Shown here: one piece after another, positions 1-43,668 of the stretch | Layout of the letters: every line of letters starts with the position of its first letter | How positions within the stretch are numbered: position 1 is the stretch's first letter | From: an uncultured Methanosarcinales archaeon | GTDB lineage: Archaea > Nanobdellota > Nanobdellia > Woesearchaeales > GW2011-AR15 | Reading direction: 5' to 3' | Length of the DNA: 64,000 bases | Assembly: GCA_964428335.1 (NCBI GenBank) | Contig: CAYRXW010000003.1 | Location: 150,368 to 214,367, forward strand | Translations under genes and position numbers: made by a program | Notes under the pieces: generated by a model | The model's database searches: none | Told to the model about the DNA's origin: nothing | What the model saw: only the letters and a program-made list of their open reading frames with translations

Positions 1-2727
1 GCAAACCTAGAAAAGGTAACAATAAATGAAAACTATGCAAAGCAGGTTTCAGATTACCTGATAAGATGCCAGTTCATGTTTGAAGACAATGGGAAGGATA
101 AAACAAGATGCTATGAAATGAATGTTGAAACAGGACAGGTAAAAATAAGTGAGACTGAAATAAAGAAAGCACTGGATGAAATAAGAAAAGAGGGTTATAT
201 AAATGAGCCTGGGGACTGCGATGAGCTATGCATTGACAGGGCAAGATGGCTAAAGGGATTATGGAGGCTAAAATTTGAAGATAATGTTATAGAGCCAAAT
301 ACTCCTTTATACATGTGCGAACAGGATACACTGATAGGAGAGACAATATACCTTTCAAGAAAAGAGCAGCATAATGCATGCAAAACTGCAGCCAATACTG
401 AACATAAGCTAGGGATGAGAGTAAAAGATTTCTACATGGAGCAAAAATACGGAAACATGGACAATGTTAACAGGTTTATTCACGGATACAGGCCAAGCAT
501 ACTTTACTATGAAGTTGCTGATGAATCAATAACTGAAGATTTTGAACAGGGTTTATATGAATGGGACTGGGATGAAGTAATATTATGGGAAACTGTCTTT
601 TTTGCATTTGATTTCATGCCAGGGGGAAGCGAGATACTGGAGTTTGTCGGAAAAGCAGTAGGGAAAAATGTTGCTAAAGGAGCAGAGAAAGAAGCTGCTA
701 AGGAATGGATAAAACCATGGATAAAAAAGTTTGTTGAAAACATACCTTTAGGAAAAGATTTTATTGAAACTTTAAGAGGAATCAGAGATTCATTCAGGAC
801 ATTCAATGATTTTTTGGATGAATTGTTCTTGAAATTAAGGCTTGCACCATATAATGCCCTTCTATCAGTTATAGATAGTAAAATAGGTAAAGCTTCAGCA
901 GATAACTTATTAAGACAATATGGGCAGGAATTCTTCGAGAAAAGATTATTTATCAATAATGCAGGTGTTGATTTAATTGAACCTTTTACAAAAAGTCTTG
1001 GCTCAGATTTAACAAGTGAAGTAAAAAATGCTGCAAAGGAAAGCCTGCAGAAAAAATACAGCCAAATACTTGAGGAAGAATTAAAAAATGTTCTAGGCAG
1101 CTCTGAAACAAGAGTACTAACAAAGCAAGAAACTGATATAATCTATTCTAGGCTAAATAGCAGAATTGCAGATTTAAAATCATCTTTGACTGGAATATTA
1201 CCTGAAGAAAAATTAATTTCAATATCTAGCTCAACTTTTATGAATATTAATAAACCTATTTCCGAAGGTCTTGAAGGCTTTTCAATGAGAGGATACAGGC
1301 AATATGTGAAAAGAAATTTAAGGATTATGGGAAGATTCTTAAATTATGTTCAAAGGCCGCTCACAGATCTTACAGATGAGGAAGCAAAAGTAGTTTTAAA
1401 GGAAATTATAGATGATAATCATAAAAGATTATTTAAGGATTTAAACCCAAGGGATACTTTAAGTTTTTTTAGAAAATACGGAACAGATCCTGAAGTTTTA
1501 GAAAAAGAATTTACTTCAAATTTAAATAATGAGGAGCTTGCTAATCTAAAAAAAGTTGCTGAGCAGTTTGGACCAGGTGTTCAAATGTATGATGATTTAG
1601 AAAGATATTACAGGAATAAGCTTAGAGGTGCAGACAGAAAAAGGACTCTTCTTTTAGCTGCTATGTGGATGGTAAGCGCTAAAATGGAAAGTGATTCAGA
1701 GATATTTCATCCTGTAGGCACAAATGCCTTTGGATATAAAAATGCAATCAGTACTCCTGTAATATTTGACGATTCAATGAGAAAGTTCTGGAACTATGAA
1801 TCAGATGAAAGCAAGTATGAAGATTTCTTCAAGCACTATGGAAACAGTAAGCTGGAAGTAGTGGATGAAAAGACAAAAAACACTGAAGAAGAAGAGGATA
1901 CAATCTCTGTTTACGAGACAGAAGCATACCAGGGAAATATTCCAGAACTTTACAATTATTTTGTCGCACTTGAGAAAGACAATAAAGAGATGAATATTTT
2001 TGACCAAAAGCCTGAAAGATTTTATTTAATTGCTCCATGTAAGGCAGATTTGGATGTAAAAATAACACATGTTGAATGCTATGGCAAGCCTTCTCCTGAC
2101 ATTGATGAGACAAGCCTTATTAACAGCTTTTTAGGGAGATACCCAACTTATGAATCAGGAGAAACAAACCCTATTACAGGGGAATTTGTAGAATTTTATG
2201 ATGGGACAAATAAGATGCTTTACAGCCTAGATGATAACGGAGAACCTGTAAAACACTGTTATAACAATGCATGGGCAAAGTTTACCTCTGGTGTTGATAT
2301 AACTGATGGGACAATAAATCCTTTTGAAGAAACCTATTCACCGGTTACAATTACAGTAAATCCTTCGTTAGACAGAGATAAAGTGCCAAATTATTGCTAT
2401 GCTGGTTATGATGGAAAAGAAGCAGTCATCTGGGCGACTTTGAATGTAGGTTTCCCGCTTTTAGGAACTGTTGGCGGAGGGCTTACATGCTCAGCAGTAA
2501 CAGCAGTCGCTACAGGAGGAGCAGGTGTTGCCGCTGCTCCTATATGCCTTGCTGCAGGAAATTTGGCAGGAGGCATTATAGGCGGGCTTATATATGAAGG
2601 ATTGGAAGCAGGATATATGGGTGGAAGGATACACTGGCCTTTCCACACCCAGTCATATAATGACAGGAGTACAGCAGGAATAGTTACAGATGTTTTGGAT
2701 GGAAAAGAAAATGAACAAGGCCCTTAA
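1..2727 (+). CDS. Large hypothetical protein, 5'-partial (reading frame open to window start). C-terminal Gly/Ala-rich hydrophobic glycine-zipper-like segment.
   Basis: Frame 1 is open from nt 1 through the annotated ATG at 76, so the gene probably begins upstream of the window. C-terminus GGGLTCSAVTAVATGGAGVAAAPICLAAGNLAGGIIGGLIY is glycine-zipper/TM-like. No recognisable catalytic motif. Confidence 0.45.
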   Translation, partial: ANLEKVTINENYAKQVSDYLIRCQFMFEDNGKDKTRCYEMNVETGQVKISETEIKKALDEIRKEGYINEPGDCDELCIDRARWLKGLWRLKFEDNVIEPNTPLYMCEQDTLIGETIYLSRKEQHNACKTAANTEHKLGMRVKDFYMEQKYGNMDNVNRFIHGYRPSILYYEVADESITEDFEQGLYEWDWDEVILWETVFFAFDFMPGGSEILEFVGKAVGKNVAKGAEKEAAKEWIKPWIKKFVENIPLGKDFIETLRGIRDSFRTFNDFLDELFLKLRLAPYNALLSVIDSKIGKASADNLLRQYGQEFFEKRLFINNAGVDLIEPFTKSLGSDLTSEVKNAAKESLQKKYSQILEEELKNVLGSSETRVLTKQETDIIYSRLNSRIADLKSSLTGILPEEKLISISSSTFMNINKPISEGLEGFSMRGYRQYVKRNLRIMGRFLNYVQRPLTDLTDEEAKVVLKEIIDDNHKRLFKDLNPRDTLSFFRKYGTDPEVLEKEFTSNLNNEELANLKKVAEQFGPGVQMYDDLERYYRNKLRGADRKRTLLLAAMWMVSAKMESDSEIFHPVGTNAFGYKNAISTPVIFDDSMRKFWNYESDESKYEDFFKHYGNSKLEVVDEKTKNTEEEEDTISVYETEAYQGNIPELYNYFVALEKDNKEMNIFDQKPERFYLIAPCKADLDVKITHVECYGKPSPDIDETSLINSFLGRYPTYESGETNPITGEFVEFYDGTNKMLYSLDDNGEPVKHCYNNAWAKFTSGVDITDGTINPFEETYSPVTITVNPSLDRDKVPNYCYAGYDGKEAVIWATLNVGFPLLGTVGGGLTCSAVTAVATGGAGVAAAPICLAAGNLAGGIIGGLIYEGLEAGYMGGRIHWPFHTQSYNDRSTAGIVTDVLDGKENEQGP

Positions 2728-3367
2728 GATAACACTGATTGCACTTTCTGTAATAGTTTTGCTAGTTTTAGTTCTGTTCCTTTATGACAATATAAAACCA
2801 AAGGTCTACACTTCAAATTATTACTCAGAAGAACCTGAAAAATGGGTTGAGGAAACTCCATATGATAACATTGAGGATAATTACGCTGTAAATGTCCAGA
2901 AAGCCACAAGGGGAAAAGGAAGCTTTGAAACATATAAACTTGAATACATGGATAGTGGTGTCAATACAATATTCTTGAGAGGGTTTTACAACGGGACAGC
3001 ATTCACTTTCAGGATAAATAACACAATAAGCCTGGATAATGAATTAATACCCAATGATGGCATCCCTGAAGGATTTATACTAATGAAAAAAGAGGAAGAA
3101 AAATTTAATTTCTATATCTATATTGATGAGGACTGGAAAAAAAAAATCAAAACAAACATCCTTTGGTCAGACGATTTTGAAAAAGGGATAAGCGAAAAGC
3201 AGTTTGATTTTTCAGGCGGGAAAAACGGGATATATATTGAAAAAATTGAAAATCTGGAATGGTTCAAGAAGAGTCCAAGAACCGGTGGAATCTATGTTGG
3301 AGACTTAACAAAGGATAACTATAAGACACAGAATGTAAGCGGGAAGACTTTCATGTATGCAAGGTGA
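2711..3367 (+). CDS. Membrane-anchored hypothetical protein (N-terminal signal anchor)
   Basis: Internal start MNKALKITLIALSVIVLLVLVLFLY is more plausible than the ORF-track start at 2690. Single N-terminal TM. No known motif. Confidence 0.45.
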   Translation: MNKALKITLIALSVIVLLVLVLFLYDNIKPKVYTSNYYSEEPEKWVEETPYDNIEDNYAVNVQKATRGKGSFETYKLEYMDSGVNTIFLRGFYNGTAFTFRINNTISLDNELIPNDGIPEGFILMKKEEEKFNFYIYIDEDWKKKIKTNILWSDDFEKGISEKQFDFSGGKNGIYIEKIENLEWFKKSPRTGGIYVGDLTKDNYKTQNVSGKTFMYAR

Positions 3368-3370
3368 TTA

Positions 3371-3670
3371 TTGATGAATAAAAAAGGGATGGAACTTGAA
3401 TATGTTGTAAAAGCCATATTGGCTTTGCTTGTGCTGGCTGTAATTGCAGGCCTTCTGTATTTCTTTGTTGTAAAAAAAGCAGGAGGAGGAATAGGCACTG
3501 TGACTGACACAACAACAGAAGAAGGGGACGGTGTTTTAGATAAGCTAAGGGATTTACTTGGGAATTCATGTGATAATGGCGCAACTAAATGCAGCCTTTC
3601 AGGCAAAGAGATGACATGCGAAGACGGCAAATGGGTTATTGGGGAGGATCCTTGTGAATCGGAAAGCTGA
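3371..3670 (+). CDS. Small type-IV-pilin-like protein (class III signal peptide) with Cys-rich C-terminus
   Basis: N-terminus MMNKKG/MELEYVVKAILALLVLAVIAGLL has a short basic leader, Gly at -1, acidic residues just after the putative cleavage site, then a ~20-aa hydrophobic helix. Confidence 0.45.
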   Translation: MMNKKGMELEYVVKAILALLVLAVIAGLLYFFVVKKAGGGIGTVTDTTTEEGDGVLDKLRDLLGNSCDNGATKCSLSGKEMTCEDGKWVIGEDPCESES

Positions 3671-4115
3671 GGAGATTGCAGGTAAGGTGCTTGTTGAAAT
3701 ATTGATTTTTGTAATCATATTTTTTGTTGCACTCCAGATAGGCTCAAAAGTATGGCAGCTCTACATATCAAAGCCGCAGGAAGTTACAGCAAGCTCCATG
3801 TATCTTCTGCAGAAGCACATAAAATATTTTGATGGGACACCAGATACGTTTGCATTACAGGTACATAAAAAGCATACGATTGAAGGTTTTGATGCAGATT
3901 CAGGCAATAAACCAGGTTCATGCGAAGGAAGCTGCATATGCATGTGCAATGGCGAATGCTGTCCTGATAATGAATGCAGCAAAGTCATAAAATGCGTTGA
4001 AGCATTTGATTCAAAAGGGGAAAGTGTAGGATTAAGTTATCCTTTCCTTGTTACTTCAACAGAACCAAAGAATTACCTATTGACAGAATCAGACGATAAG
4101 CTTGTTATAGAATGA
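3639..4115 (+). CDS. Pilin-like protein with Cys-rich C-terminal domain
   Basis: N-terminus RKAEEIAG/KVLVEILIFVIIFFVAL has Glu at +5 after Gly and a hydrophobic helix. CxC-rich tail (CEGSCICMCNGECCPDNEC). Start codon uncertain; overlaps the previous ORF. Confidence 0.4.
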   Translation: MGRILVNRKAEEIAGKVLVEILIFVIIFFVALQIGSKVWQLYISKPQEVTASSMYLLQKHIKYFDGTPDTFALQVHKKHTIEGFDADSGNKPGSCEGSCICMCNGECCPDNECSKVIKCVEAFDSKGESVGLSYPFLVTSTEPKNYLLTESDDKLVIE

Positions 4116-4555
4116 ATAAAAGAGGGGAATTGGAAGTAGAACTTATCTTTTTTATAGACTTAATCATACTTGTAGCTGTTTTCATCGCATTCCTTAATGG
4201 CATAATTGCAGTAGGCCAGAATACGGATTTTAAGATGAAATTTTCTGCAAAAAATGCAGCACTTATGGCAGATTCTGTTGCAACTTCCCCTTATCCGATG
4301 CATCTTTACTATAATGAAAATACTTATGGATATGATTTTTCATTCAAGAAAGAATATGTCGAAGTGATTGATAACTTCCAGAAAGCAACATATCCATATA
4401 TTCCAGACATAAACAAGCAGTTTGAGGAAAAAACAATCTACCCTATTGAGATTGAAGACAAGGAAACTGAGAAGACAACGCCAATAGTTTTTGTATCAGA
4501 CAGAAAGAACCTTGGTTTCATTGCAGCGATACCTTCAGGTGAGAAAAGTGAATAA
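4112..4555 (+). CDS. Pilin-like protein (class III signal peptide)
   Basis: MNKRG/ELEVELIFFIDLIILVAVFIAFL is a basic leader followed by G, then E at +1/+3/+5 and a hydrophobic helix. Start overlaps the upstream gene by 4 nt (operon). Confidence 0.45.
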   Translation: MNKRGELEVELIFFIDLIILVAVFIAFLNGIIAVGQNTDFKMKFSAKNAALMADSVATSPYPMHLYYNENTYGYDFSFKKEYVEVIDNFQKATYPYIPDINKQFEEKTIYPIEIEDKETEKTTPIVFVSDRKNLGFIAAIPSGEKSE

Positions 4556-4565
4556 AAAAGCCCAG

Positions 4566-5045
4566 ATGTTCAAGGCTTTCTGGTACTATATGATAAGGGT
4601 GCCTATAATCATTTTATTATTTGGGCTTTTCATGTATTTCTCAGGAGGTCTCCAGAACCAGGCTCTTGCCAGCCCGAATGTAAGGGAAAAAATAATAGTG
4701 AACAGGCTTTTTTTCTCAGCAAACTCGATTTCTTATGTTGATGAAACTATAGGGAAAGTCTACCCCGGCATAATAGACATTGAAAAATTTGAAAACAATG
4801 TTCTGGATGCATCATTTTTTACAAGGGAAAACAAAGCAGCTGCTGCGAAACTTGACCTGATCAATCTTGACACAAACGAAACAAAGGAAGCCTACATCAA
4901 TAAGGACCTTTATGACAGGTGGAAAAATTATGTGAAATTTGAGCAGTACAGCAGCGTGAAAGACCAGTTTTATGTACTGATAAAAGACGGAGATAATCAG
5001 TACAGCGGATTATTAAAAGTAAACGTGTTGATGCATAATGGGTAG
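4566..5045 (+). CDS. Membrane protein, possible minor pilin-like
   Basis: An internal Met start (MFKAFWYYMIRVPIIILLFGLFMYF) avoids overlap with the upstream gene. N-terminal TM helix. Confidence 0.4.
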   Translation: MFKAFWYYMIRVPIIILLFGLFMYFSGGLQNQALASPNVREKIIVNRLFFSANSISYVDETIGKVYPGIIDIEKFENNVLDASFFTRENKAAAAKLDLINLDTNETKEAYINKDLYDRWKNYVKFEQYSSVKDQFYVLIKDGDNQYSGLLKVNVLMHNG

Positions 5046-5460
5046 AGGGTTTTTTTTGTTAAGCTATTATGACCTTGTTGCAATGATACTTCTGATACTA
5101 ATAGTCCCATTCTGGATAATGGTATTAAAGTCCCCTGGCAACAGGTCTGCAGAGATAACAGAAGAAATAACCTATATTGAAGATGACTTGATTCTTATTA
5201 ACATACTAAAAACCAGGCATGAAAATAAGCTTATACTTGATTATGTGATTGAAAAAGATGAGACAATTAAAGAAAATATCCAGCAGATACTTGAAAAAAG
5301 CTATGGGAAAGTATGCTTTGAACTAAAACTGAATAATGAGATATTCATAAAGGAAAAATGCAATATATTCCAGAAAGACGATGTCCTCAGGTCAAGCGTT
5401 TTAGTCCCTTCTGAAACACCAATAAAAATAGAATTAACCTTACCGGGGTACAGGGAATGA
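5038..5460 (+). CDS. Pilin-like/membrane protein
   Basis: MGRG/FFLLSYYDLVAMILLILIVPFWIMVL has a short leader and a hydrophobic helix with Asp. Confidence 0.4.
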   Translation: MGRGFFLLSYYDLVAMILLILIVPFWIMVLKSPGNRSAEITEEITYIEDDLILINILKTRHENKLILDYVIEKDETIKENIQQILEKSYGKVCFELKLNNEIFIKEKCNIFQKDDVLRSSVLVPSETPIKIELTLPGYRE

Positions 5461-6602
5461 AAGGAAACATACTTATGATTGGCCTTGTAGTTGTTTTCTT
5501 CCTTGTCGTGCTTGTAGGGCTTTATATACAGGTGACAAATAAGGCAAATGATTTTGAGGAAGCAATAGGAAGCCACCAGTCAAAGGTCCTGAATGCATAT
5601 AAAGATGGAGAAAAAGCCCTCTTTTTCATAGAGCTTGCAGGCAGGAATTCTTTTTATGAATCCTTTGAAAAACTAGATACAGAATGCGGAAATTATGAGG
5701 GAGTGCCTCTGTTAAATTCCGAAAGCAAAAGTTGCATGAATGAGATATTTGAAGCGACAGTTGATGGAACAAACAAAAAAACAGAAAAGTTCACAGAACA
5801 AATGCCAAAAATTGATTATGACATAAAAATAGGTGACAAAGGAATATTTTTTTTCGCAAAGAATTCCCTGAGAATGGACATTGGCGGAAAATATAATTTT
5901 GAAATTTCAAAAGCACCAGAATTCAAGAAAACAGAGCCTGAAACTCCGGAACCATCAGTGCCAATAGAAGAGCCCATTGAGAGTCCTGTCCAGCCACCTA
6001 CAACGCCTGTTCAGGGTGGAAGCGGAGGCAAATGTGGATTTATTGCAGATTATGCAAAGCAGTATGTTGCTGCACAATGTCCTTATTCCCTTAGCCTAAT
6101 TTATGGCGCAACTCCACAGACATGCCACGAGAAACCTTTGACATGTGCAACTTTTGTAGCTTCATTATATTACTATACTTTTGGTGAATGGATATATGGC
6201 AATGGAAATACAAAATGTACAGATGGAAAGGTTGTTCCTATGGGAAATAATCCAAACAGCCTTGCTTTCATTAACAAAAACACAGGAAAATCAATTTCAA
6301 CATCGCTTCAGCCAGGAGATATATTCCAGGCTGACCTTATCTCATCAAGAACCGGCCAGCCTACTGCATGGGGACACACAGGAATCTATGTTGGCAGGGG
6401 ATACCTAGACTTAGGTTCATATGATGGTCCATATTGTTTCAGGAGCTATAAGCCGGATGAAAAAGGCAACCTTATATTTGCGCATTCTTACGGATGGCAG
6501 GACTATGGGCAGCCAGGTGTATGTTTTTCAGATTATAAGAACCTATTTGGTGGCGGACAGATAATACCGACAAACTTCTGCAGGTACAGGGGATGCGCAT
6601 GA
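5457..6602 (+). CDS. Pilin-like N-terminus fused to an NlpC/P60-CHAP superfamily (papain-fold) cysteine peptidase domain
   Basis: N-terminus MKG/NILMIGLVVVFFLVVLVGLYI. C-terminal domain has Cys in LTCATFVASLYYYTF and the downstream motif QPGDIFQADLISS...WGHTGIYVGRG, which matches the NlpC/P60 pattern (PGD...hH.GIY.G). Confidence 0.55.
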   Translation: MKGNILMIGLVVVFFLVVLVGLYIQVTNKANDFEEAIGSHQSKVLNAYKDGEKALFFIELAGRNSFYESFEKLDTECGNYEGVPLLNSESKSCMNEIFEATVDGTNKKTEKFTEQMPKIDYDIKIGDKGIFFFAKNSLRMDIGGKYNFEISKAPEFKKTEPETPEPSVPIEEPIESPVQPPTTPVQGGSGGKCGFIADYAKQYVAAQCPYSLSLIYGATPQTCHEKPLTCATFVASLYYYTFGEWIYGNGNTKCTDGKVVPMGNNPNSLAFINKNTGKSISTSLQPGDIFQADLISSRTGQPTAWGHTGIYVGRGYLDLGSYDGPYCFRSYKPDEKGNLIFAHSYGWQDYGQPGVCFSDYKNLFGGGQIIPTNFCRYRGCA

Positions 6603-9600
6603 AAAAAATAATTATACTTTTTTTCCTGCTTCTGCCATTTGCGCATGCTGAACTGCTTGTAAACTTTGGTGAAAGAATAAGTTCAATAGACCAGATTGAG
6701 AAATCCACTTATTATTATGAGTACTACCTAAGCAGTCCACAGGAATCAGAGTATATTTTTGTATTTCATTATAATGATGAAAAAATCAATAAAAATTCTA
6801 CAAACAGCATGTTCATACTTACAGATATAGATGCAAGCCGGCTTTATAGGATAGACTTACTGAAAAATAACGAGCTTAGGGATTCGGTGCTCACTAACTT
6901 CTGCAACCATGATTCAATATGTGAAAACAACCTTACAAAAGGGATATTTGAAAATGAGCTTACATGTTCAGACTGTGAAAAAAGCGCTAAAGATAACTTC
7001 TGCAATATTGAAGATGATGATATCTGCGACCCTGACTGCATAGGATATAATTATGATGAATTTCCTGGAACGTGCCTTGAAGATTATTTCAGGGCAAATG
7101 AATGCTCAAACTACTGCAGTGAAAATGAGATATGCACATCTGATGTTTTTGTATCAGAATTGGGGTTATGCTGTACAGGAGAATGTGTAAAGAACACTGA
7201 AGATTTTTGCGGGGAATACCTTAATGGGACAATATGCATGGGAAATGAAGCATGTAGCGGGCAGGAAGTTGTTTTCGGGACAGAAGGGAAAACATGCTGC
7301 TACGGAGGAACCTGTGAAGAAGATGAAAATGTTGATTACTATAATATAACTTTGATCAATGATACAGCGGAAACAAAGAACCTAAACATTTATTTTATCA
7401 TTGGGATATTTGCATCCCTTGTAATACTTGTCATCGGGCTTCACTATAAGAACCTGAATATTGTGATTGCATCCAGCCTTTTTTTCATACTTATGCTTAG
7501 CTTTCTTCTTTTGGACGCAAGGAATATAATTACAGGAAAGGCAACCTCCAATACCTTGACACAGGAAGAAATAAACCTCATCATGACCACCCCTTCAGTA
7601 TTCAATTACGGGGGGCAAAGTAATACAAACTTATTTTTGGCATTAAAAAGCATTTCATCAGAATTCAGGAAAAGGAATGTCGAATTTTCCGAGAATCTTA
7701 TGATTGCAACAATAACAACGATGGAGAAGGAAGTGGGTGGGTATGGTTTTTTACCAGTAGAAGAATATGGAGACTATTGTGCAGGACCAACTTCAAAATT
7801 TACTATTGCAGGAAAACACAGGAAAACGCCTTATGATGGAGGATGTGACTACAAAGGAAGAGGGTACATGCAGGTAACTCACTATAGCGGATATCTGAAA
7901 TACTGTGGTCCTGATTGTGTTACAAGAAGTACAGCAGGAAACATACTGGATGAATGCAAATGCAAAGGACTTGCATATTGCTCAGTAAAGGACGAAGCAA
8001 AGTGTCCACCAAATAAAGCACTTAGACCTGAATATGCAGGAAGAATTTTTTCTAATTTTTACATTGGAAAAGGATTACTTGGTCTTGTGGATTCAAAAAA
8101 CTATGTTGAAATAGGTACAAGAATTAACGGCGTTAAGTCTTATGGTATTGATTTTGAGAAAAAAGCTAATGCTAAACATAGTTCATATAATAAAGACCAG
8201 GTAAGAAAACTGCTTGCATATTTTAATCAGAGAAGCATTACAACTCCAAGTGCTCCAACTACACCAACAACTCCAAGCACAGGAACAACTGGAGAAGAAC
8301 CTGTTTCAGTAGATACAACTGTCACAACAGATGTCGCTGATGAGATAATTTCAGGGGATAAGCTTGGATATTATTACTTAAATCCTTCATTCAAAATTGA
8401 GACAGAGCTTTCTTTCATTCCAACTTTGGTTGAGGAAGCAAAAGATTATGAAACATTGAAATCAACACTGGAAAAATATGATAAGGAGGAATTATGGATA
8501 ATCGGCGGATGCGGTGAAATAAAGAAAATTGATGAAGAATCAACAAAATTCATTTTCTGCGTTGATGACGGTGTTAAGAAGATAGAATTTGCACTTGACC
8601 TGGAAGGGAAGATTGAACCAAAGATTACTGAAGCAGAACGGCAGGAAACAGCAGAAGCAGGAACAGGGACACAGACAGAAACAGGAACGCAAACAGAGAC
8701 AAACAGCCAAGAAGAGACAGAAGAAGAAATAACAGAAGGGTTTTCTCAATTATTTTCAGGAATACAATATGGGAAATTTTCAGCAGCAGGACCAATTGTA
8801 TATCATGTCACAAAGATTGATCTGAGGAACCAAAATATAAGGTTTTTAGTGACACCGCAAAACCAGCTTGGGCAACCTACTTCTTCGTTTTTCGCTGCAA
8901 ACAGGCCACAGGTTGCAATTAACGGAGACGAATTCAGGACACTTGGAAGCCCTAAAGGTGTTGCTGTTTCAAACGGGAATGTTTATTCTTCATCAGCAGA
9001 GACAGGAGAACAGACAGTATTTATTTCAACAAAGAACGAAGTAAGCATAGGGAACAAGATTCCACAGGGGACATTAAATGCTGTATCTGGCTCACACGTG
9101 TTCTTAGAGAATGGAGTAGTTCCTGAAAGGATTAGATCATGCTCAAAAATCCCATATTGCAATGATATGCATCCAAGGACTTCAATAGGGGTAAGCCAGG
9201 ATGGAAATACCATGATAATAATCACAGTTGATGGCAGGAGAAGCGACTATAGCATAGGAATCAAGCTCCATAGCAACAATCCATCAGATTTGACCTTGGC
9301 AGAACTTCATCTTGCATTTGGTTCATACAACGCAATAAATCTTGATGGGGGAGGTTCAACAACTCTTGTCATGGAAGGAAAAGGGACAGTAAATAACCCA
9401 ACAGATCCACCTGAAGAATACCTTAATGATGCAGCAAAGAAAGCAGAGCTTATCTACTATGACGGCTTTTTGGTGCACCCAAACAAAAATATATTCAGGG
9501 AGAGGTATGTCTCAAACCATCTTGGGATTTATGCAGCAAAAGTAGCAGCAGCACCTGAAAAAACAAATCAGGAAAGCTGCCTAAGCGATGACATGGATAT

Positions 9601-10174
9601 TGTGCTTTTTGGAGACAGCATTACAGAAGGCCATGCAACATATGGGAACAAGGCATTAAGTTCAGAATTTAACAGTAGGATTTCAAAAGATGTAACCATG
9701 TTTTATACAACAGGACTGGGAGGAAAGAGAGCAGATAGCCCAGAATCAATTGATTCATACAATAAGTTCATCCTTCCAAAAAAGCCTGATATTGTGCTTT
9801 TATGGTTCGGAATGAATTCACATGGTTTTGAAGCGTCGCATAAAACCCAGTATATAAATTATATTAATGACATGAAAAAAAAAGGGATAATCCCTGTAAT
9901 CCTTACGACTTCACCTGCATGCGATGCGCTTACAGAAAAAGACATATCTTATCTTGAGGATATCCAGGCAATAAATAAGGATCTGGCGAAGACAGCAGGA
10001 GTTTACCTGATTGATGTCAAAACCAAGCTTGAAAACGAGATGAATGGCAAGTGTAAAGACTATTTCATGGATGCATATCATATGAACCCACAGGCACATT
10101 CAATAGTTGCAAAAATAGTTGTTGACCAGTTCAGTGCATGGAAAAAGGCAAAAACAGGACCTTATTCCTGCTGA
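6593..10174 (+). CDS. Giant multi-domain membrane-anchored hydrolase: Cys-rich N-terminal region, 2 TM helices, GH19-chitinase/lysozyme-like domain, Thr/Pro linker, phosphodiester-glycosidase (NAGPA/DUF2233-like) domain, C-terminal SGNH/GDSL hydrolase
   Basis: Signal peptide MRMKKIIILFFLLLPFAHA. GH19 signature: EKEVGGYGF...GDYCAG...YKGRGYMQVTHYSGY (compare HETTGG and YYGRGPIQLSWNYNY). NAGPA-like: VAINGDEF...INLDGGGSTTLV. SGNH: VLFGDSITEG ... DAYHMNPQAH. Confidence 0.65.
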   Translation: MRMKKIIILFFLLLPFAHAELLVNFGERISSIDQIEKSTYYYEYYLSSPQESEYIFVFHYNDEKINKNSTNSMFILTDIDASRLYRIDLLKNNELRDSVLTNFCNHDSICENNLTKGIFENELTCSDCEKSAKDNFCNIEDDDICDPDCIGYNYDEFPGTCLEDYFRANECSNYCSENEICTSDVFVSELGLCCTGECVKNTEDFCGEYLNGTICMGNEACSGQEVVFGTEGKTCCYGGTCEEDENVDYYNITLINDTAETKNLNIYFIIGIFASLVILVIGLHYKNLNIVIASSLFFILMLSFLLLDARNIITGKATSNTLTQEEINLIMTTPSVFNYGGQSNTNLFLALKSISSEFRKRNVEFSENLMIATITTMEKEVGGYGFLPVEEYGDYCAGPTSKFTIAGKHRKTPYDGGCDYKGRGYMQVTHYSGYLKYCGPDCVTRSTAGNILDECKCKGLAYCSVKDEAKCPPNKALRPEYAGRIFSNFYIGKGLLGLVDSKNYVEIGTRINGVKSYGIDFEKKANAKHSSYNKDQVRKLLAYFNQRSITTPSAPTTPTTPSTGTTGEEPVSVDTTVTTDVADEIISGDKLGYYYLNPSFKIETELSFIPTLVEEAKDYETLKSTLEKYDKEELWIIGGCGEIKKIDEESTKFIFCVDDGVKKIEFALDLEGKIEPKITEAERQETAEAGTGTQTETGTQTETNSQEETEEEITEGFSQLFSGIQYGKFSAAGPIVYHVTKIDLRNQNIRFLVTPQNQLGQPTSSFFAANRPQVAINGDEFRTLGSPKGVAVSNGNVYSSSAETGEQTVFISTKNEVSIGNKIPQGTLNAVSGSHVFLENGVVPERIRSCSKIPYCNDMHPRTSIGVSQDGNTMIIITVDGRRSDYSIGIKLHSNNPSDLTLAELHLAFGSYNAINLDGGGSTTLVMEGKGTVNNPTDPPEEYLNDAAKKAELIYYDGFLVHPNKNIFRERYVSNHLGIYAAKVAAAPEKTNQESCLSDDMDIVLFGDSITEGHATYGNKALSSEFNSRISKDVTMFYTTGLGGKRADSPESIDSYNKFILPKKPDIVLLWFGMNSHGFEASHKTQYINYINDMKKKGIIPVILTTSPACDALTEKDISYLEDIQAINKDLAKTAGVYLIDVKTKLENEMNGKCKDYFMDAYHMNPQAHSIVAKIVVDQFSAWKKAKTGPYSC

Positions 10175-10246
10175 TTTCTTTTAAAAGCCAAACCTAATAT
10201 TTTAAATACACCTATCCTTTCTAACGATACATTAACTTAATGATTT

Positions 10247-11356
10247 ATGGGGTGTTATAACTTGATAAAGATACCAAAAGAAATGCTTATTGAAAAGATA
10301 AAAGAGAAAGGGCTTACTGAAGCGCAGATAAAATCCAAAGTTAAGGATAAACTAGACCAGCTTTCAGGCCTGATTTCAGAGGAAGGGGCTCTACATATAA
10401 TTGCCAATGAGCTTGGAGTGAAGGTCATGGATGAAGGCAAGCTGAAACTGAAGAATGTGCTTTCAGGCATGAGAAGCCTTGACATCACGGCTAAAGTCCT
10501 TAAGATATATGAAGTAAGGGAATTCAACAAGGGAGATAAGAAAGGAAAGGTAGGAAATTTCCTGATAGGCGATGAGACAGGGGTTATGAGAGTAGTTGCC
10601 TGGAATGACAAAGCTGATTTACTTACCAGCTTAAAGGAAGGGACAACAGTAAAGGTTACAGCTGCTTATACAAAGGATAACCAGGGGAAGACTGAGATAC
10701 ACCTTGGAGACAAGTCACAGGTCACTATAAGCGATGAGGAGATAAAGGTTGCCAGCAAGGAAAATGTAAGGAAGAATATCTCAGATTTAAAGGAAAATGA
10801 TGATAATGTTGAAATCATGGGAACAATTGTCCAGGTTTTTGACCCAAGGTTCTGGCCAACTGATCCAACAACAGGAAAAAAGGCTGTTGAAAAAGAAGGG
10901 GAATATTTCTATGAAGACAAGCCAATAACGCCTGATTTTTCATATGTGACAAACATCTTCCTGGATGATGGCACAGAGAACATAAGGGTAGTATTATGGA
11001 AAGCCCAGACAGAAAAACTTTTTGAGATGACCCATGAAGAGATAAAATCAAAAAGGATTGCCGGGTTTGAAGACAAGAAAAATGATCTTTTGGGAAAGAT
11101 AGTGAAATTTTCAGGAAAGACAAGCAAGAACCAGATGTTTGATAGGCTTGAATTCATTGCACAGAATGTTGATATGAACCCAAATCCAGAAGAAGAGATT
11201 GAAAGGCTAAAGGCAATGGAAGCAAAGGAATCAAAGGAAGAAAAAAAGGAAGAGAAAGAAGAAGAGCTTCCAAAGCCAAAAGAGAAAAAACCTGATGTTA
11301 AAACATCTGATGAACTAAATATAGATGATATAGAAGGATTAGAGGATTTGGAATAA
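10247..11356 (+). CDS. rpa: Replication protein A-like ssDNA-binding protein (OB-fold) with KE-rich acidic C-terminal tail
   Basis: N-terminal region (LSGLISEEGALHIIANELGV) is typical of archaeal RPA. Repeated OB-fold-like segments (GKVGNFLIGDETG.MRVVAWND; ENIRVVLWKAQ). Acidic C-terminus DDIEGLEDLE. Confidence 0.75.
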   Translation: MGCYNLIKIPKEMLIEKIKEKGLTEAQIKSKVKDKLDQLSGLISEEGALHIIANELGVKVMDEGKLKLKNVLSGMRSLDITAKVLKIYEVREFNKGDKKGKVGNFLIGDETGVMRVVAWNDKADLLTSLKEGTTVKVTAAYTKDNQGKTEIHLGDKSQVTISDEEIKVASKENVRKNISDLKENDDNVEIMGTIVQVFDPRFWPTDPTTGKKAVEKEGEYFYEDKPITPDFSYVTNIFLDDGTENIRVVLWKAQTEKLFEMTHEEIKSKRIAGFEDKKNDLLGKIVKFSGKTSKNQMFDRLEFIAQNVDMNPNPEEEIERLKAMEAKESKEEKKEEKEEELPKPKEKKPDVKTSDELNIDDIEGLEDLE

Positions 11357-11358
11357 TC

Positions 11359-11910
11359 CTAAACTAACATTTCCTGATATTTCTTTCCTTTTTTTAACAT
11401 TGCAGGCCTTTTATATCCTATAGGATTTGAATAATATAACTGAGGGAAATGGTTGTATTTTTCATTAGGGATTATAATGTTTTTTTCCAGTATAGAAAGA
11501 GTTACTTTAGAATCATCTTTTCCATGGCTTCCTATAGTAAAATCACTACTTACTGAAGAAACCAAAATCCTGGATATATCATCTTTTGGAATGTTTTTAT
11601 CAATTATATCCAATGCTTCAATTAAGGAAGTTCTGGCAATATAGAATTCAACATGGCTTGGCTTATAGCCAAATTTGCTAAAAAAAGCAAGGTCACCAGA
11701 TTTTTTAAATTCATCATGCACAAATATCCCAAACCTATCAAACAATTCATAAGTATGCAGAAAAGGCAGATTTATTCCTGCTTCATTTAATATGAAATTC
11801 ACATAGCCTGAACATGAAAATCCTTCAGTTGCATTTCCGGGTTTTTCTTTTGAGTATCTTTTGCAGGGATAGTTTAGATATTTGAGAGCTATAGGGATTA
11901 ATTGGGACAT
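11359..11910 (-). CDS. NlpC/P60 family cysteine peptidase-like protein
   Basis: EGFSCSGYVNFILNEAG matches the D/E-CSG-h-V catalytic Cys motif. Later His in KPSHVEFYIA. Confidence 0.5.
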   Translation of the reverse strand: MSQLIPIALKYLNYPCKRYSKEKPGNATEGFSCSGYVNFILNEAGINLPFLHTYELFDRFGIFVHDEFKKSGDLAFFSKFGYKPSHVEFYIARTSLIEALDIIDKNIPKDDISRILVSSVSSDFTIGSHGKDDSKVTLSILEKNIIIPNEKYNHFPQLYYSNPIGYKRPAMLKKGKKYQEMLV

Positions 11911-12061
11911 GCAGGTGAAATGAAGATTGAGGTTTAAGAAGGGTTTGACATAAAATATGATTGGAGGTAGATGACAGGAGAGTGGACGTATGACGCAGGA
12001 GCAATTTTAGTTGCGCATGTAAATCATAAAAAACATAAAGAAAGCCTAAATACTATTTAAT

Positions 12062-13042
12062 ATGCAGAGTATTATGAATTACATTAAAAATCCAGTAAGA
12101 CAAGGAGTATACAAAGCTAAAATACACTTTAAGTCAAAAGAATTACTTCTAAGTTTCATCAATTTTCAGAAAAATTGCAGAAAAAAATTTGAGGAACTAA
12201 AAAAGAAGCCAACAATAGGTTTTTACCAAGCAGGGATGTATGAAGAGTATCTAAAAAAAGAAAAATATGAAAACTGGTTATTAGAATCCATATTAGATAA
12301 TTTATTTATGCTTTTAAAGTTTAATAAGGAAGGTGTTTCTAAAGAACTTGAAAATGAATATAATAAGATTTGGCAAGATCTTGAAACAGGTAACTCAGCT
12401 TATTGCAATTTTGGAGATGATAATTACCTTTTAAAATTCAATGATGCCTTTTCAACAGAAATTAAACAACTTGAAACAAAGGATTTTATATTTTTTATAT
12501 ATTCTATAAAAGAATCAACTTTATTGAGTTTTGTAAATATAATAACTCTTGCTTTTGGCGAATCATCATTTAAACTTATTTACCAAATAAATAGTCATGT
12601 AAAAGAAGATGTAATATTTCCTTATATATCTGCAGTTTTTCTATGTTTAGATAATAAATCAGAGTTTATTGAAGATTATTTGATTAATGATTTAGAGGAA
12701 ATTAAAAACAACTATGGACTTGGTTTTTATAGAATGAGCATTCTGTTTATAGGTATTATCTTAGAAGAGATATTAGCTAGAACCTATGAAAATATATTGA
12801 ATGAGGAAGTTCCAAAGGATGCAGGAATTGGATTTTTAATTAAAGCCTTATTTGAAAAAAAAGAGAAAAAATTAGATATACCCAAAGACATCTATTCTAA
12901 TTTATATGATGATGCAAGAGAACTTAGAAATAGCGCAGTTCATCGAGGTAAAAAAGATTTTTCAAGATATGACGTAAAAATAATGTTAAAAGGAGTATTT
13001 AGGCTATACTTATTTTTAAAAGAGAATCAAGTGCGCAACTAA
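12062..13042 (+). CDS. Hypothetical protein with a C-terminal Rx4H (HEPN-type) motif; sits in an AT-richer island
   Basis: C-terminal ~110 aa are helical and carry LYDDARELRNSAVHRGKKDF, which fits the HEPN RN-x3-H motif. Codon usage is markedly more AT-rich than the flanking radA/RPA. Confidence 0.45.
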   Translation: MQSIMNYIKNPVRQGVYKAKIHFKSKELLLSFINFQKNCRKKFEELKKKPTIGFYQAGMYEEYLKKEKYENWLLESILDNLFMLLKFNKEGVSKELENEYNKIWQDLETGNSAYCNFGDDNYLLKFNDAFSTEIKQLETKDFIFFIYSIKESTLLSFVNIITLAFGESSFKLIYQINSHVKEDVIFPYISAVFLCLDNKSEFIEDYLINDLEEIKNNYGLGFYRMSILFIGIILEEILARTYENILNEEVPKDAGIGFLIKALFEKKEKKLDIPKDIYSNLYDDARELRNSAVHRGKKDFSRYDVKIMLKGVFRLYLFLKENQVRN

Positions 13043-13133
13043 AATTGTTGAACATAACGATTCGTCGGGCAGACGACGTGGGAAGACAATTTCTTAAATC
13101 CAAATATTTTAACGAATAGTAAGCCTATAAATT

Positions 13134-13835
13134 TTAATTATTGAGCCATTTACTATAAGCTAACTTATCAATTAATAAGTGAATTGTTGGTGGCCTATTA
13201 TCCCAAGTAATTTTTAAAACATTAGCGTGTTCGACAACCAATAAATTTTCATATTCATCATCAATAATTATTTTATCAATAGTATACTCTCTAAAAGTTA
13301 CACGATCTTCAATAGTCTTTGTTGAATAGAATGCAAAATTCAGAAACATAACAATTAATAGAATATAAAAAAACTCGTTACCTAGACCAGAATTAAATAC
13401 ACCTACACCGGCGACTATTGACAAAAAACCCAACACAAAATTTATAACAGTGAAAGCGGACTTGATTTTTTTTTGTTCCTGCAAAATATTGAGATTTCTT
13501 AATTTTTTATTGTAATCATGCCTAAGTTTTATCGCACGAACTTTTTCATTTAAGTTAGATAACATTTCTACAAAAACCATATGTCTCTTTATTTCGCTAT
13601 TGTCTTGAATATTGTCGCTGTAACCAAAACTGTTTTTATCAATTTTAACAATTTGCTTGCCCTTTAAATTCTTTAGTTTAAGTGTCTTGGTGTCATAAAA
13701 CACATATTTTGGAACAATTTTGGCACTTTTGTCGTTTATTATAACTAAATCACCCATAAGGCAATAGTCTTTGCCTATTTTATGTATAAGATTTTTATGA
13801 GATATAATTTCCAAGCCTTTGATAATTACAGTCAT
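13134..13835 (-). CDS. Hypothetical two-TM membrane protein (island gene)
   Basis: Central hydrophobic pair FTVINFVLGFLSIVAGVGVF / FFYILLIVMFLNFAFY. No known motif. Confidence 0.4.
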   Translation of the reverse strand: MTVIIKGLEIISHKNLIHKIGKDYCLMGDLVIINDKSAKIVPKYVFYDTKTLKLKNLKGKQIVKIDKNSFGYSDNIQDNSEIKRHMVFVEMLSNLNEKVRAIKLRHDYNKKLRNLNILQEQKKIKSAFTVINFVLGFLSIVAGVGVFNSGLGNEFFYILLIVMFLNFAFYSTKTIEDRVTFREYTIDKIIIDDEYENLLVVEHANVLKITWDNRPPTIHLLIDKLAYSKWLNN

Positions 13836-13912
13836 AATAATTACATTATTTTAAAGTATATATTTTTTATTAAAAGTAGAAAACCTACGGTTTTCCACAC
13901 CTTTCCCTAAAT

Positions 13913-14953
13913 TCAAAATAATAAGAAATTATTCCTATATTTTTCAGCGAACAAATCAATTTCTCTATTAAGGATATTCAATTGTCTATCTAAATATTTA
14001 TAATTAATAATATAAATAAACCCTGGGTGAATATAGTTTAACCGAGATAATATTGATGACAATTTTTTATTTGAATCTATCTCAAGAAGTAACTTACTTT
14101 CTTCATTATTTAGTTTCAGAGGTCCAGTCTTATTAAGTTCATCATTAAATTTATTAAAATATTCAAAACCAACATTGTAAACAGCAACTGCTTCTTGATT
14201 ATTACATAGTTTTAGGGTATCGTTTTCTTTTTCTATTTCTTCTAAAGTAATATTTTCTTTTAAGGTATATAAATCAGCTGTTGTAACGATAATTGGAAGT
14301 GTCAATGTACTTAACAATGTGGAAAATTTTGGCTGTTTATATTTTAACAAATATAATACATCAAATAAACATAAATCTCTATAAAGTCGATGCGTTACAA
14401 TAGATCCACAAACAGTTTGAAAGATTGCTCGAATGATAGAATTTGGATTTGCACCCTTTTCAAATATCTCTATCCCTTTATTAACTTCAGGACATGATAA
14501 GATATTTTTTTGGAGCAATTTCAAATTTAAGTTATCATCCTTTTTTTTCTTATCTAAAAGTGATAAGACAGGCGATTCAAATTCTGACAAAATTAGATTT
14601 CCCCCAGAAAAATTTCTAAATCCACTAGGTTCTTCTGGAAACCTTATAAAAAACCAACTATGATTTTTGGTTTTATATTTACATTCAATCACAAGTTGGA
14701 TGCTCAACTCAAGTCTATCAATTAGTATTAGGTTTTTATCTGCATAGATATCTGTTGAAAATAACTTATTTTCCCGATTGTAATGGACTTCTCCTTCGTC
14801 ATTAAAACCAATATTTTGAATCTTTTTAACGACAGAAGATTCAAGAGGAATACCAGATTTCAAAACAAACTCTTTAAAAGATGGATTTACCATAAATTTA
14901 GAATAATTCCTTAATTTATAAAATAAGGCATGGTTTGTCATGCTAATTAACAA
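13913..14953 (-). CDS. Hypothetical protein with possible N-terminal PD-(D/E)xK nuclease-like motif (island gene)
   Basis: TDIYADKNLILIDRLELSIQLVIECKYK has the pattern hhhD ... 10-12 aa ... hhE-x-K characteristic of restriction-endonuclease-fold nucleases. This is speculative from the motif alone. Confidence 0.35.
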   Translation of the reverse strand: MLISMTNHALFYKLRNYSKFMVNPSFKEFVLKSGIPLESSVVKKIQNIGFNDEGEVHYNRENKLFSTDIYADKNLILIDRLELSIQLVIECKYKTKNHSWFFIRFPEEPSGFRNFSGGNLILSEFESPVLSLLDKKKKDDNLNLKLLQKNILSCPEVNKGIEIFEKGANPNSIIRAIFQTVCGSIVTHRLYRDLCLFDVLYLLKYKQPKFSTLLSTLTLPIIVTTADLYTLKENITLEEIEKENDTLKLCNNQEAVAVYNVGFEYFNKFNDELNKTGPLKLNNEESKLLLEIDSNKKLSSILSRLNYIHPGFIYIINYKYLDRQLNILNREIDLFAEKYRNNFLLF

Positions 14954-32455: not shown

Positions 32456-32775
32456 AGTGTAGAGCAGCTATAAGCCACCTTTTGTACGCCTTCTCACTTT
32501 CGCAAGAACAGGCATCCTTGACATTCAACTAAGCCTCTCTAAGGAGTTGCACAAGCCAGGACTCACCGTTTCATCCGTTCCATCTACGACGTCAGGAGGT
32601 TAACTCTCTTTTGTCGCCAAAAGATTCGCATCCATCATCCCATTAATAGATGGTGGTCTCGTTTCTGAGTGGTTGCCCTCAGTTTCCCGTTAGCTGGCTT
32701 TGGCCAGTGGCTGCATTAGTGGGTGGACTTTCCTCAATGCTTACGCACCGAAAGTCAAGCACTGCCCTACAACCA
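32456..32775 (-). ncRNA. rnpB: RNase P RNA (archaeal type A-like)
   Basis: Minus strand contains GAGGAAAGUCCAC (universal CR-I GGAAAGUCC), GGAUGAAACGGUG (CR-II-like), and GGCUUAUAG near the 3' end (CR-V GGCUUA). The 5' GUAGGGCAG can pair with 3' CUGCUCUAC as P1. The region is GC-rich relative to the genome, and the two ORF-track ORFs over it are incoherent. Confidence 0.75.
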
Positions 32776-40421: not shown

Positions 40422-40931
40422 TTGAATATGAAAAAGAGGGGACAGTTTTCAGTAGAATATATTATGATAATCACAATCTCCCTTCTTATACTTTTACCTG
40501 GAATCTATATTTTCAGAAACTATGCATTTGAATCAAATGACAGGTTGATGGAAACCAGGCTAGATGAGGTTGCAAATTCAATACTTTTGAGGGCAAAAAA
40601 AATGCATTACTTTGGCCCGCCATCCAAATCAGTTGTTGAAGTGGAGATGCCTTCCGGTATAAGCAGCATGTATGTCTATAATGAAGGGACAGAGTATTTT
40701 TTGGGTTTTTTAGTTCTCACTTCTTCAGGAGAGAAAGAATTTCTTTTTGATTCTGATATACCCATACGTGTGGATTCCCCAGTAGCCTGCAAAAACCCAT
40801 GCAGTTCCTGCTCGTGTTTCCCTGAAAATGCGTATGGTGAAGGGCTAAAAAACATCAAAGTTGAATCAGCAAAAGACACCATGTTTTATGTCAGGATAAA
40901 AGAGGATTCAGAGGCAGTTGCAAATGGCTAA
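40422..40931 (+). CDS. Archaeal type IV pilin-like protein (class III signal peptide)
   Basis: MNMKKRGQFSVEYIMIITISLLILLPGIYIF matches the KRGQ-x-S-x-EY class III signal peptide consensus. Confidence 0.6.
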   Translation: MNMKKRGQFSVEYIMIITISLLILLPGIYIFRNYAFESNDRLMETRLDEVANSILLRAKKMHYFGPPSKSVVEVEMPSGISSMYVYNEGTEYFLGFLVLTSSGEKEFLFDSDIPIRVDSPVACKNPCSSCSCFPENAYGEGLKNIKVESAKDTMFYVRIKEDSEAVANG

Positions 40932-43613: not shown

Positions 43614-43668
43614 AAAAGTTTATATAGCAGTAAACCGGTAAGAAAACCAAGGAAAAGAGGGGTTTTTA

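Follow-up and report, generated by a model that had tools for sequence, protein, structure and literature searches.

A candidate murein-degrading surface protein with GH19-like, NAGPA and SGNH modules in a pilin-like operon of a probable DPANN archaeon

The DNA considered here is a 64,000-nucleotide stretch of contig CAYRXW010000003.1 (assembly GCA_964428335.1, positions 150,368 to 214,367 of the forward strand) from an uncultured archaeon; the whole stretch is called the window below, and positions count from its first base. At its beginning lies an operon of nine genes on a single strand, running from base 1 or 76 to base 10174, with gene ends that overlap or abut. The last of these genes, at 6593..10174 (+), encodes g1193, a surface-anchored protein of 1193 amino acids (aa) with three enzyme modules whose predicted activities suggest an attack on bacterial cell walls. 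It is preceded by a large gene open to the window edge, by six small pilin-like genes and by g381, which resembles a pilin at its N-terminus and a cysteine peptidase at its C-terminus. A T-rich tract lies 3' of the g1193 stop codon, and a TTTAAATA box stands ahead of the next gene, which encodes an RPA-like protein.

Architecture and enzyme modules of g1193

The gene is an open reading frame (ORF) of 1193 codons with an ATG start, and thus exactly the single polypeptide that the original prediction had described; the motifs quoted in support of it are all at the expected places (EKEVGG at aa 378, GRGYMQVT at 422, DGGGS at 918, GDSITEG at 1007 and DAYH at 1160). On a near-identical contig, gene callers place the start two codons later, at the equivalent of 6599, where it overlaps the upstream stop. 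Full-length relatives with 89% identity (P0001, 1186 aa), 35% identity (P0003, 1188 aa) and 31% identity (L025, about 1278 aa) indicate that this is a real gene. The exact 1193-aa and 1191-aa products do not occur in a collection of 15 billion proteins, although the products of neighbouring genes do. Three window ORFs of more than 1000 aa that were tested against this collection (6593-10174, 44141-48796 and 54429-58019) are all absent from it and eight other products, of 326-938 aa, are present; the absence of the long products may come from genes having been called differently or from incompleteness of the collection.

The topology of g1193 was deduced from the hydropathy of the sequence, with no dedicated predictor. 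A hydrophobic signal-like segment at aa 4-18, ending in ...PFAHA/ELL, marks a candidate Sec-type signal peptide with an AxA-type cleavage site (aa 1-19, 6593..6649 (+), MRMKKIIILFFLLLPFAHA followed by ELL), which is kept in L025. It is followed by a Cys-rich ectodomain (aa 20-263, 6650..7381 (+)); 20 of the 36 cysteines of the protein fall within aa 104-241. This region is kept in P0003 and L025 and is a separate neighbouring gene at a further locus, L005; possibly it has a binding or stalk role. Two adjacent hydrophobic helices, within aa 261-315, make up a predicted membrane hairpin at aa ~264-311 (7382..7525 (+)), again kept in P0003 and L025. An exported N-terminus combined with a two-helix hairpin places both the Cys-rich head and everything past aa 312 outside the cell. 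Accordingly, the Sec-type signal is predicted to export the protein and the hairpin to anchor it in the membrane, with the head and the enzyme modules extracellular. The signal peptide, Cys-rich module and pair of transmembrane helices proposed at the outset are thus all visible in hydropathy and cysteine positions.

The first enzyme module, at aa 330-548 (7580..8236 (+)), is a divergent GH19-type, lysozyme-like unit identified by a family profile and by its putative catalytic residues. It corresponds to a conserved stretch of ~215 aa that recurs at 43-50% identity in multidomain proteins from DPANN archaea. A single-sequence search of the PDB yielded a weak lead only (9ms7, E=0.95). A profile built from eight such modules returned significant PDB matches that are almost all GH19 proteins, at E-values from 1.8e-6 (9ms7) to 0.05. 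The others include 8p8e, 9eoi, 4ok7 (the SPN1S endolysin), 9hqw, mycobacteriophage LysA and the plant chitinases 1dxj and 3w3e; 9eoi is PaGH19Lys, a proven muramidase (PMC12329726). When 1.84 billion cluster representatives were searched exhaustively with HMMER, only 42 came out at E<1e-30, followed by a drop to ~1e-13. Among ten proteins just under this drop, Glyco_hydro_19 is the best Pfam match in all ten and exceeds the gathering score in eight, and several carry LysM. Alignment of 34 core modules with 99 outgroup proteins by hhalign gave a probability of 99.87% (E=1.2e-31), and a hidden Markov model (HMM) built from the outgroup only recognised g1193, at 77.6 bits, as its sole match among 258 window ORFs; the two tests are not fully independent, because the archaeal profile had picked the outgroup, which Pfam assigns to GH19 independently.

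The catalytic apparatus can be compared residue by residue. The shared core of GH19 enzymes comprises, in SPN1S numbering, the proton donor E49, the base E58, G123-R124-G125, Q128, the water-holding T130 and N191 (PMC8547705). Residue roles were transferred from that study and from PMC12329726, and positions in the archaeal module were mapped to E49/E58/T130 by motif and HMM alignment. In g1193 this predicts E380 as the acid, E391 or E390 as the base and T429 as the water-holding residue, together with G422-R423-G424, Q427 and N512. Conservation among 34 family members is nearly complete (E380, E391 and GRG in 34/34, Q427 and T429 in 33/34, N512 in 32/34 and E390 in 31/34). A family-specific insert with six cysteines, at aa 438-471, sits between the two lobes of the module, for which the structural model suggested a bilobal lysozyme-like fold. 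From these profile and residue comparisons we conclude that aa 330-548 constitute, by homology and catalytic residues, a divergent endolysin-like GH19 domain. The GH19 signature of the original prediction stands in modified form: the Pfam model fails to see it, whereas the family profile, the matched structures and the Glu/Glu/Thr catalytic set support a GH19-type lysozyme-like module. The profile searches proposed with that prediction came out half in its favour, since only a profile of the archaeal family bridges to GH19. By sequence, the module defines a rare and new archaeal clade, which goes undetected by the GH19 model of Pfam.

The same comparison addresses the idea that g1193 is a chitinase, degrading chitin or other GlcNAc (N-acetylglucosamine) polymers for nutrition with the SGNH domain as a deacetylating esterase. 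GH19 does include chitinases (PMC8547705), and the family profile touches two from plants. The water-holding residue, however, is Thr in 99% of endolysins and Ser in 84% of chitinases (PMC8547705), and the archaeal module has Thr; endolysins are its top structural and sequence matches, its partner domains elsewhere are murein peptidases and amidases, and Pfam finds no chitin-binding module in g1193. We therefore give a chitinase little chance.

The other two enzyme modules are recognised directly by Pfam. A NAGPA/DUF2233 phosphodiester glycosidase domain occupies aa 772-940 (8906..9412 (+); PF09992, E=1e-25, 91.3 bits against a cut-off of 25). This segment matches a bacterial DUF2233 structure (3ohg, E=1.6e-16) and vertebrate NAGPA (6pku, E=2.6e-5), and both alignments cover the DGGGS loop, which is intact at aa 918-922. 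According to a 2026 structural study, the loop never varies in NAGPA, and both recognition of the substrate and catalysis depend on it critically (PMC13474241). An SGNH/GDSL esterase domain follows at aa 1003-1175 (9599..10117 (+)). Lipase_GDSL_2 (PF13472) matches aa 1005-1170 with E=2.8e-13 and 51.2 bits against 32.9, and PF00657 scores 45.4 bits against 23.6; the domain also aligns over its whole length with 1yzf, a lipase/acylhydrolase (E=4.7e-5). All four SGNH blocks are present: GDS at 1007 (S1009), GLGG at 1041, GMNS at 1073 (N1075) and DAYH at 1160 (D1160, H1163). Both domains named at the start are thus confirmed above Pfam gathering scores, with their catalytic motifs intact.

The remainder of the chain consists of linkers and one further conserved domain. 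A Thr/Pro-rich linker, recognised by composition, covers aa 549-585 (8237..8347 (+)) and a Thr/Glu/Gln-rich one aa 691-745 (8663..8827 (+)). Between them lies a middle domain at aa ~586-690 (8348..8662 (+)) with the pattern GYYYLNPS...W-x-x-GGC, common to P0002, P0003, L025 and L033, and a similar stretch occurs in P0007. Neither Pfam nor NCBIfam returned a match for the Cys-rich head, the middle domain or the GH19-like segment.

The pilin-like operon and its exchanged cassettes

Directly upstream of g1193, and with a stop that overlaps its start, lies g381 (5457..6602 (+)). Motifs, a family profile and a predicted fold identify it as a pilin-like N-terminus (MKG, then NILMIGLVVVFF...) joined to a C-terminal NlpC/P60-type cysteine peptidase domain. 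Every member of its family has C230 and H307, and at least 90% have H343. The family profile recovers the C40 peptidase 6biq from the PDB at E=0.0024, and Pfam NLPC_P60 and NCBIfam give no match to g381 itself. The AlphaFold2 model has a long N-terminal helix (aa 3-71) and strands at 121-152, a part in which the predicted local distance difference test (pLDDT) is 40-80; its C-terminal domain is predicted well. In Foldseek the six best-ranked matches to this model are all NlpC/P60 murein hydrolases, among them 7cfl, Acd24020, MepS and SagA, at probabilities of 0.99-1.0 and TMt values of 0.58-0.68. One relative comes from Pacearchaeota, and NCBI annotates a relative as a C40 family peptidase. 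On these predicted features g381 is a pilin-like protein with an NlpC/P60-type peptidase domain. Another NlpC/P60 protein, of 183 aa and with no evident signal peptide, is encoded on the opposite strand two genes downstream of g1193 (11359-11910 (-)).

The six small genes that precede g381 (2690-3367, 3374-3670, 3639-4115, 4112-4555, 4566-5045 and 5038-5460, all (+)) overlap or abut one another and encode N-termini that resemble the archaeal class III signal peptide. They were called pilin-like by a simple in-house rule, which asks for [KR][GA] at the N-terminus and then a hydrophobic helix. The rule flags six of the eight genes upstream of g1193, as against 14 of 65 across the window (6/14 in the second cluster described below). 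The gene at 3639-4115 counts as a seventh pilin-like gene when read from a TTG start, from which it has RKA and a helix. These pilin-type N-terminal motifs are kept in the L025 orthologues, and curated pilin or class III signal models in Pfam and NCBIfam gave no match to the operon proteins. The first gene of the operon, g883 (1..2727 (+)), is open to base 1 and cut by the window edge, so that its product exceeds 883 aa; it has a Gly-rich hydrophobic C-terminus, and its orthologues have 998-1000 aa. Neither g883 nor the small operon proteins match any Pfam or NCBIfam family, and the 15-billion-protein collection does not contain the exact 883-aa product of the edge-cut frame. Among the parts of the operon that lack an explanation, g883 is the largest.

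A second cluster, at 40428-48796 (+), contains five genes with clear class III signal-like N-termini (for example MKKRG/QFSVEYIMII...) and is possibly another pilus or adhesion locus. One of the five encodes a cohesin-domain protein (42711-43613), and a gene for a 1551-aa Laminin_G_3 protein comes after them (44141-48796). Elsewhere in the window, a 1196-aa protein with Ig-like repeats (Big_9, PKD, He_PIG; 54429-58019 (-)) is probably a surface adhesin.

The arrangement at the head of the window recurs elsewhere. The order of nine genes followed by RPA is also found on the P0003 contig and on two metagenome contigs, L025 and L035, the latter two sharing 29-54% identity per gene with the window operon and 62% for RPA. 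Conservation of order is accompanied by changes in domain content. The small pilin-like protein g147 has orthologues of ~390-416 aa that carry Amidase_2 in both L025 (5644-6822) and the P0003 contig. Orthologues of g1193 retain the chain from the signal peptide through the Cys-rich head and the hairpin to the GH19-like module and the middle domain, and diverge thereafter. The C-terminal cassette consists of NAGPA and SGNH in the window and in P0001; of NAGPA and an unassigned domain with a Cys...His motif in P0002, at 62% identity; of SGNH and an unassigned domain in P0003; and of a beta-lactamase-like domain (Beta-lactamase2) with Peptidase_C39_2 in L025 (gene 8906-12739). An 'ES...GGICQ' motif had raised the prospect that the P0003 C-terminus is an SLT-like lytic transglycosylase, an assignment that was dropped for want of PDB or Pfam support.

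Other loci distribute the same parts differently. At L005 the GH19-like part, the Cys-rich part and SGNH each have a gene of their own; these genes are neighbours and encode pilin-like N-termini, in an operon of pilin-like proteins together with NlpC/P60, C39_2 and SGNH. A protein from Woesearchaeota (L007) unites in a single chain the GH19-like module, a g381-like domain, a canonical NlpC/P60-like motif and an N-terminus of pilin type. Across the family the module is fused to Amidase_3 (P0005), M23 and SLT (P0007), M23 (P0009), NlpC/P60 (P0027, L005, L007), Peptidase_C39_2 and SGNH (P0003, P0004), and also to adhesion-type repeats such as CARDB, PKD, fn3 and beta-helix. This fusion, fission and cassette swapping argue that the parts cooperate and diversify. 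The fusion of GH19, NAGPA and SGNH is new, and so is the conserved operon of pilin-like proteins with its exchanged cassettes. The cell-wall-attack locus of the original prediction gains weight from the pilin-like NlpC/P60 gene upstream and from conservation of the whole operon with other murein hydrolase domains.

The exchange of cassettes also bears on a role in scavenging, in which the same enzymology would digest free peptidoglycan fragments and necromass at the surface, as a source of amino acids and amino sugars for a cell whose biosynthesis is reduced. The hydrolase domains expected for this role are identical to those expected for wall breaching. Recycling of microbial biomass has been proposed for DPANN archaea (PMC9723730), and the family scans identified no toxin, pore-former or secretion machine in the operon. 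The membrane anchor and pilin-like presentation, in contrast, favour action at cell-cell contact, the swapping of cassettes among orthologues looks like diversification under conflict, and no uptake transporters are linked to the operon. On this evidence scavenging is an unlikely role.

Candidate target and comparison with known systems

We consider that g1193 is probably a surface enzyme that degrades bacterial murein at the cell surface, and the best reading of the operon, judged by its predicted domains, is an apparatus for contact-dependent breaching of bacterial peptidoglycan. The GH19-like module would cleave the backbone between N-acetylmuramic acid (MurNAc) and GlcNAc. The NAGPA-like domain would hydrolyse GlcNAc-1-phosphodiester links, through which wall polymers such as teichoic acids are bound to MurNAc C6 or are decorated. 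The SGNH esterase would strip from MurNAc C6 the O-acetyl groups that shield against muramidases; that O-acetylation at this position blocks lysozymes is stated for phage depolymerases (PMC9862828). The pilin-like proteins would form a short fibre displaying stem-peptide hydrolases, NlpC/P60 here and Amidase_2 elsewhere. Together, these parts could open the sacculus at the site of contact with a bacterium, for attachment, nutrient uptake or killing.

The original prediction had left the choice between a bacterial and an archaeal partner open. Bacterial peptidoglycan is preferred mainly because the fused catalytic partners act, as characterised, on bacterial murein; the co-occurring Amidase_2, Amidase_3, M23, SLT and NlpC/P60 domains point to that target over an archaeal one. 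An archaeal host envelope would instead be stripped at the attachment site, with the lysozyme-like, NAGPA and SGNH domains acting on pseudomurein, methanochondroitin, sheath or S-layer glycans. Known DPANN hosts are archaeal, NAGPA and SGNH are not specific to murein, and the module occurs on contigs binned as Methanothrix or Methanosarcinales, which could reflect episymbionts or shared habitats. The fused and neighbouring peptidases, amidases and transglycosylases, however, have been characterised on murein stem peptides and MurNAc. Pseudomurein, built with beta-1,3 links and L-amino acids, resists lysozymes. Its chemical distinctness is also noted in PMC12352652. We regard an archaeal envelope as an improbable target.

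Several observations weigh against the murein-breaching reading. Every DPANN archaeon cultivated to date has, to our knowledge, an archaeal host. Pfam PF00182 (Glyco_hydro_19) gives no match at E<=10 to whole g1193 or to the isolated segment, and the archaeal family has Lys in place of H48 and Val in place of S50 of the GH19 core. The AlphaFold2 model of the module is moderate, with a pLDDT of 72, a predicted template modelling score (pTM) of 0.73 and values below 50 in the central insert. Against the PDB as well as a viral structure library, the top-ranked Foldseek matches are GH19 endolysins, with weak scores (E 0.08-0.35, TM 0.38-0.48). No LysM, SH3, PG_binding or other recognised peptidoglycan-binding domain was found in g1193 with Pfam. 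The roles proposed for SGNH and NAGPA are much less certain, since they rest on general family knowledge; their nearest solved relatives are generic, and for this reason the substrate of the SGNH domain cannot be read from its sequence. Finally, a pilus ATPase, a platform protein and a prepilin peptidase were found neither in the operon nor among the window genes scanned with Pfam and NCBIfam, which did not include every ORF. What had been called a pilin-peptidase operon therefore contains pilin-like proteins and a cell-wall peptidase, and not the processing and assembly machinery of a pilus.

Membrane-anchored wall hydrolases in filament or secretion operons have precedents in Gram-positive conjugation and type IV secretion systems. 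CwlT, PrgK and TraG (pIP501) combine a muramidase or transglycosylase with NlpC/P60 or CHAP and open a local hole in murein, an arrangement that resembles the g1193 locus. These enzymes cut the wall of their own producer, whereas an archaeon has no murein wall, and family scans detect no VirB4- or VirD4-type ATPase in the g1193 operon.

Comparison with the GH19 endolysins (SPN1S, 4OK7; PaGH19Lys, 9EOI) reveals a common Glu/Glu/Thr core, GRGxxQxT, a C-terminal ...ING motif, profile homology and Thr as the water-holder. The archaeal module differs in falling under PF00182 detection, in the two substitutions at H48 and S50, in its six-cysteine insert and in a Glu-Glu spacing of 10-11 residues, compared with 9 in the endolysins. 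It is also archaeal and part of a membrane-anchored multi-enzyme protein, whereas the endolysin groups listed in the GH19 Engineering Database (GH19ED) are bacterial and viral only, with archaea never mentioned (PMC8547705).

The NAGPA domain has its own parallels. It belongs to the same family as the human NAGPA 'uncovering enzyme' and bacterial DUF2233 (3OHG), with the DGGGS catalytic loop in common. Unlike the human enzyme, g1193 cannot have mannose-6-phosphate glycans as its substrate, lacks a propeptide and an EGF stalk, and carries the domain as a module of a predicted wall-degrading enzyme. Conflict proteins of Bacillota combine TelC and NAGPA, sometimes with NlpC/P60 (PMC12419801). Like them, the archaeal family places NAGPA alongside murein peptidases in extracellular, diversifying multi-domain proteins; the partners in g1193 are instead GH19-like and SGNH domains, the producer is an archaeon and the anchor is a membrane hairpin.

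Archaeal enzymes that degrade murein are already on record, for DPANN archaea among others, and the g1193 locus most likely extends a habit of archaea that was recognised only lately. Large extracellular proteins of Woese- and Pacearchaeota with murein lytic-transglycosylase domains (fam00969) have been proposed to bind or degrade bacterial walls (PMC8204110, PMC9723730). They resemble g1193 as DPANN surface proteins with a bacterial-type domain that cleaves glycan strands. Their GH23/SLT domain contrasts with the GH19-like module of g1193, which is further distinguished by two extra enzyme domains and by a defined operon with pilin-like hydrolase carriers. Archaeal peptidoglycan hydrolases (PGHs) that kill bacteria and are prominent in Nanoarchaeota are described by Strock et al. 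(2025, PMC12352652), from a survey directed at 'recognizable modular PGHs' with catalytic and peptidoglycan-binding domains. Like the enzymes presented there, g1193 is a predicted exported archaeal protein with bacterial murein hydrolase domains; it differs in being anchored in the membrane and not released, and in having no recognised binding domain. Because it has no such domain and its glycosidase is unseen by Pfam, g1193 may escape a survey of that kind.

Host, distribution and implications

The window is archaeal, as originally proposed, since it contains an archaeal RNase P RNA (32459-32770 (-), 138 bits) together with genes for RadA, an RPA-like protein, GatD and aminoacyl-tRNA synthetases, at a GC content of 36%; ARAGORN found no tRNA gene in the 64 kb. 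The host is probably a DPANN archaeon of Woese- or Pacearchaeota type, because the closest relatives of the window's products carry such labels (the Pacearchaeota relative of g381, for example), and the archaeon that encodes g1193 is probably a tiny symbiont. Between the RPA and RadA genes, an AT-rich segment at 12001-14953 (GC 0.265, compared with ~0.36 elsewhere) may be an inserted island; its ORFs, of 326, 233 and 346 aa, match no family.

A metagenome scan with the full g1193 protein gave no match, and one with the module alignment did yield relatives. In scans of genomes and metagenomes the core module turned up in Micrarchaeota, Woesearchaeota, Nanoarchaeota and unclassified archaea, and also on the three contigs binned as Methanothrix or Methanosarcinales (L004, L005 and L006, GC 0.48-0.52). 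The scans returned no bacterial core member, only distant bacterial matches (L013, L014).

This distribution bears on a viral origin, in which an integrated archaeal virus or mobile element would have g1193 as its endolysin or as a lysin associated with its virions. GH19 lysozymes are typical of phage endolysins, and the modular multi-enzyme layout is like that of mycobacteriophage LysA (PMC3314691). Searches of 2.9 million IMG/VR viral contigs and, by tblastn, of 50,697 phage genomes, however, brought up no relative. RPA is a constant chromosomal neighbour of the operon in three lineages, no phage genes flank the operon, and the endolysin of an archaeal virus would lack a murein substrate. 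A viral lysin is barely credible on these grounds.

On whether DPANN archaea interact with, parasitise or kill bacteria, the evidence to date is limited to hints from genomes and a single experimental study, on haloarchaeal enzymes. An archaeal GH19 clade unseen by standard domain libraries means that library-based surveys of archaeal murein hydrolases may undercount. The union of a backbone cutter with two enzymes that could remove protective decorations from MurNAc C6 offers a direct hypothesis for the breaching of decorated walls. The operon provides experimenters with a defined gene set of pilin-like hydrolase carriers and exchanged enzyme cassettes, and g1193-type enzymes could supply new antibacterial lysins. 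A more far-reaching proposal, which we put forward tentatively and with some doubt, is that a pilus-like fibre with interchangeable murein-hydrolase 'warheads' (NlpC/P60, Amidase_2) and a membrane-anchored GH19-like enzyme with a lineage-swapped cassette form an archaeal contact-dependent device for breaching walls, evolving in the manner of polymorphic toxins. If that is true, these DPANN archaea would have bacterial hosts or prey.

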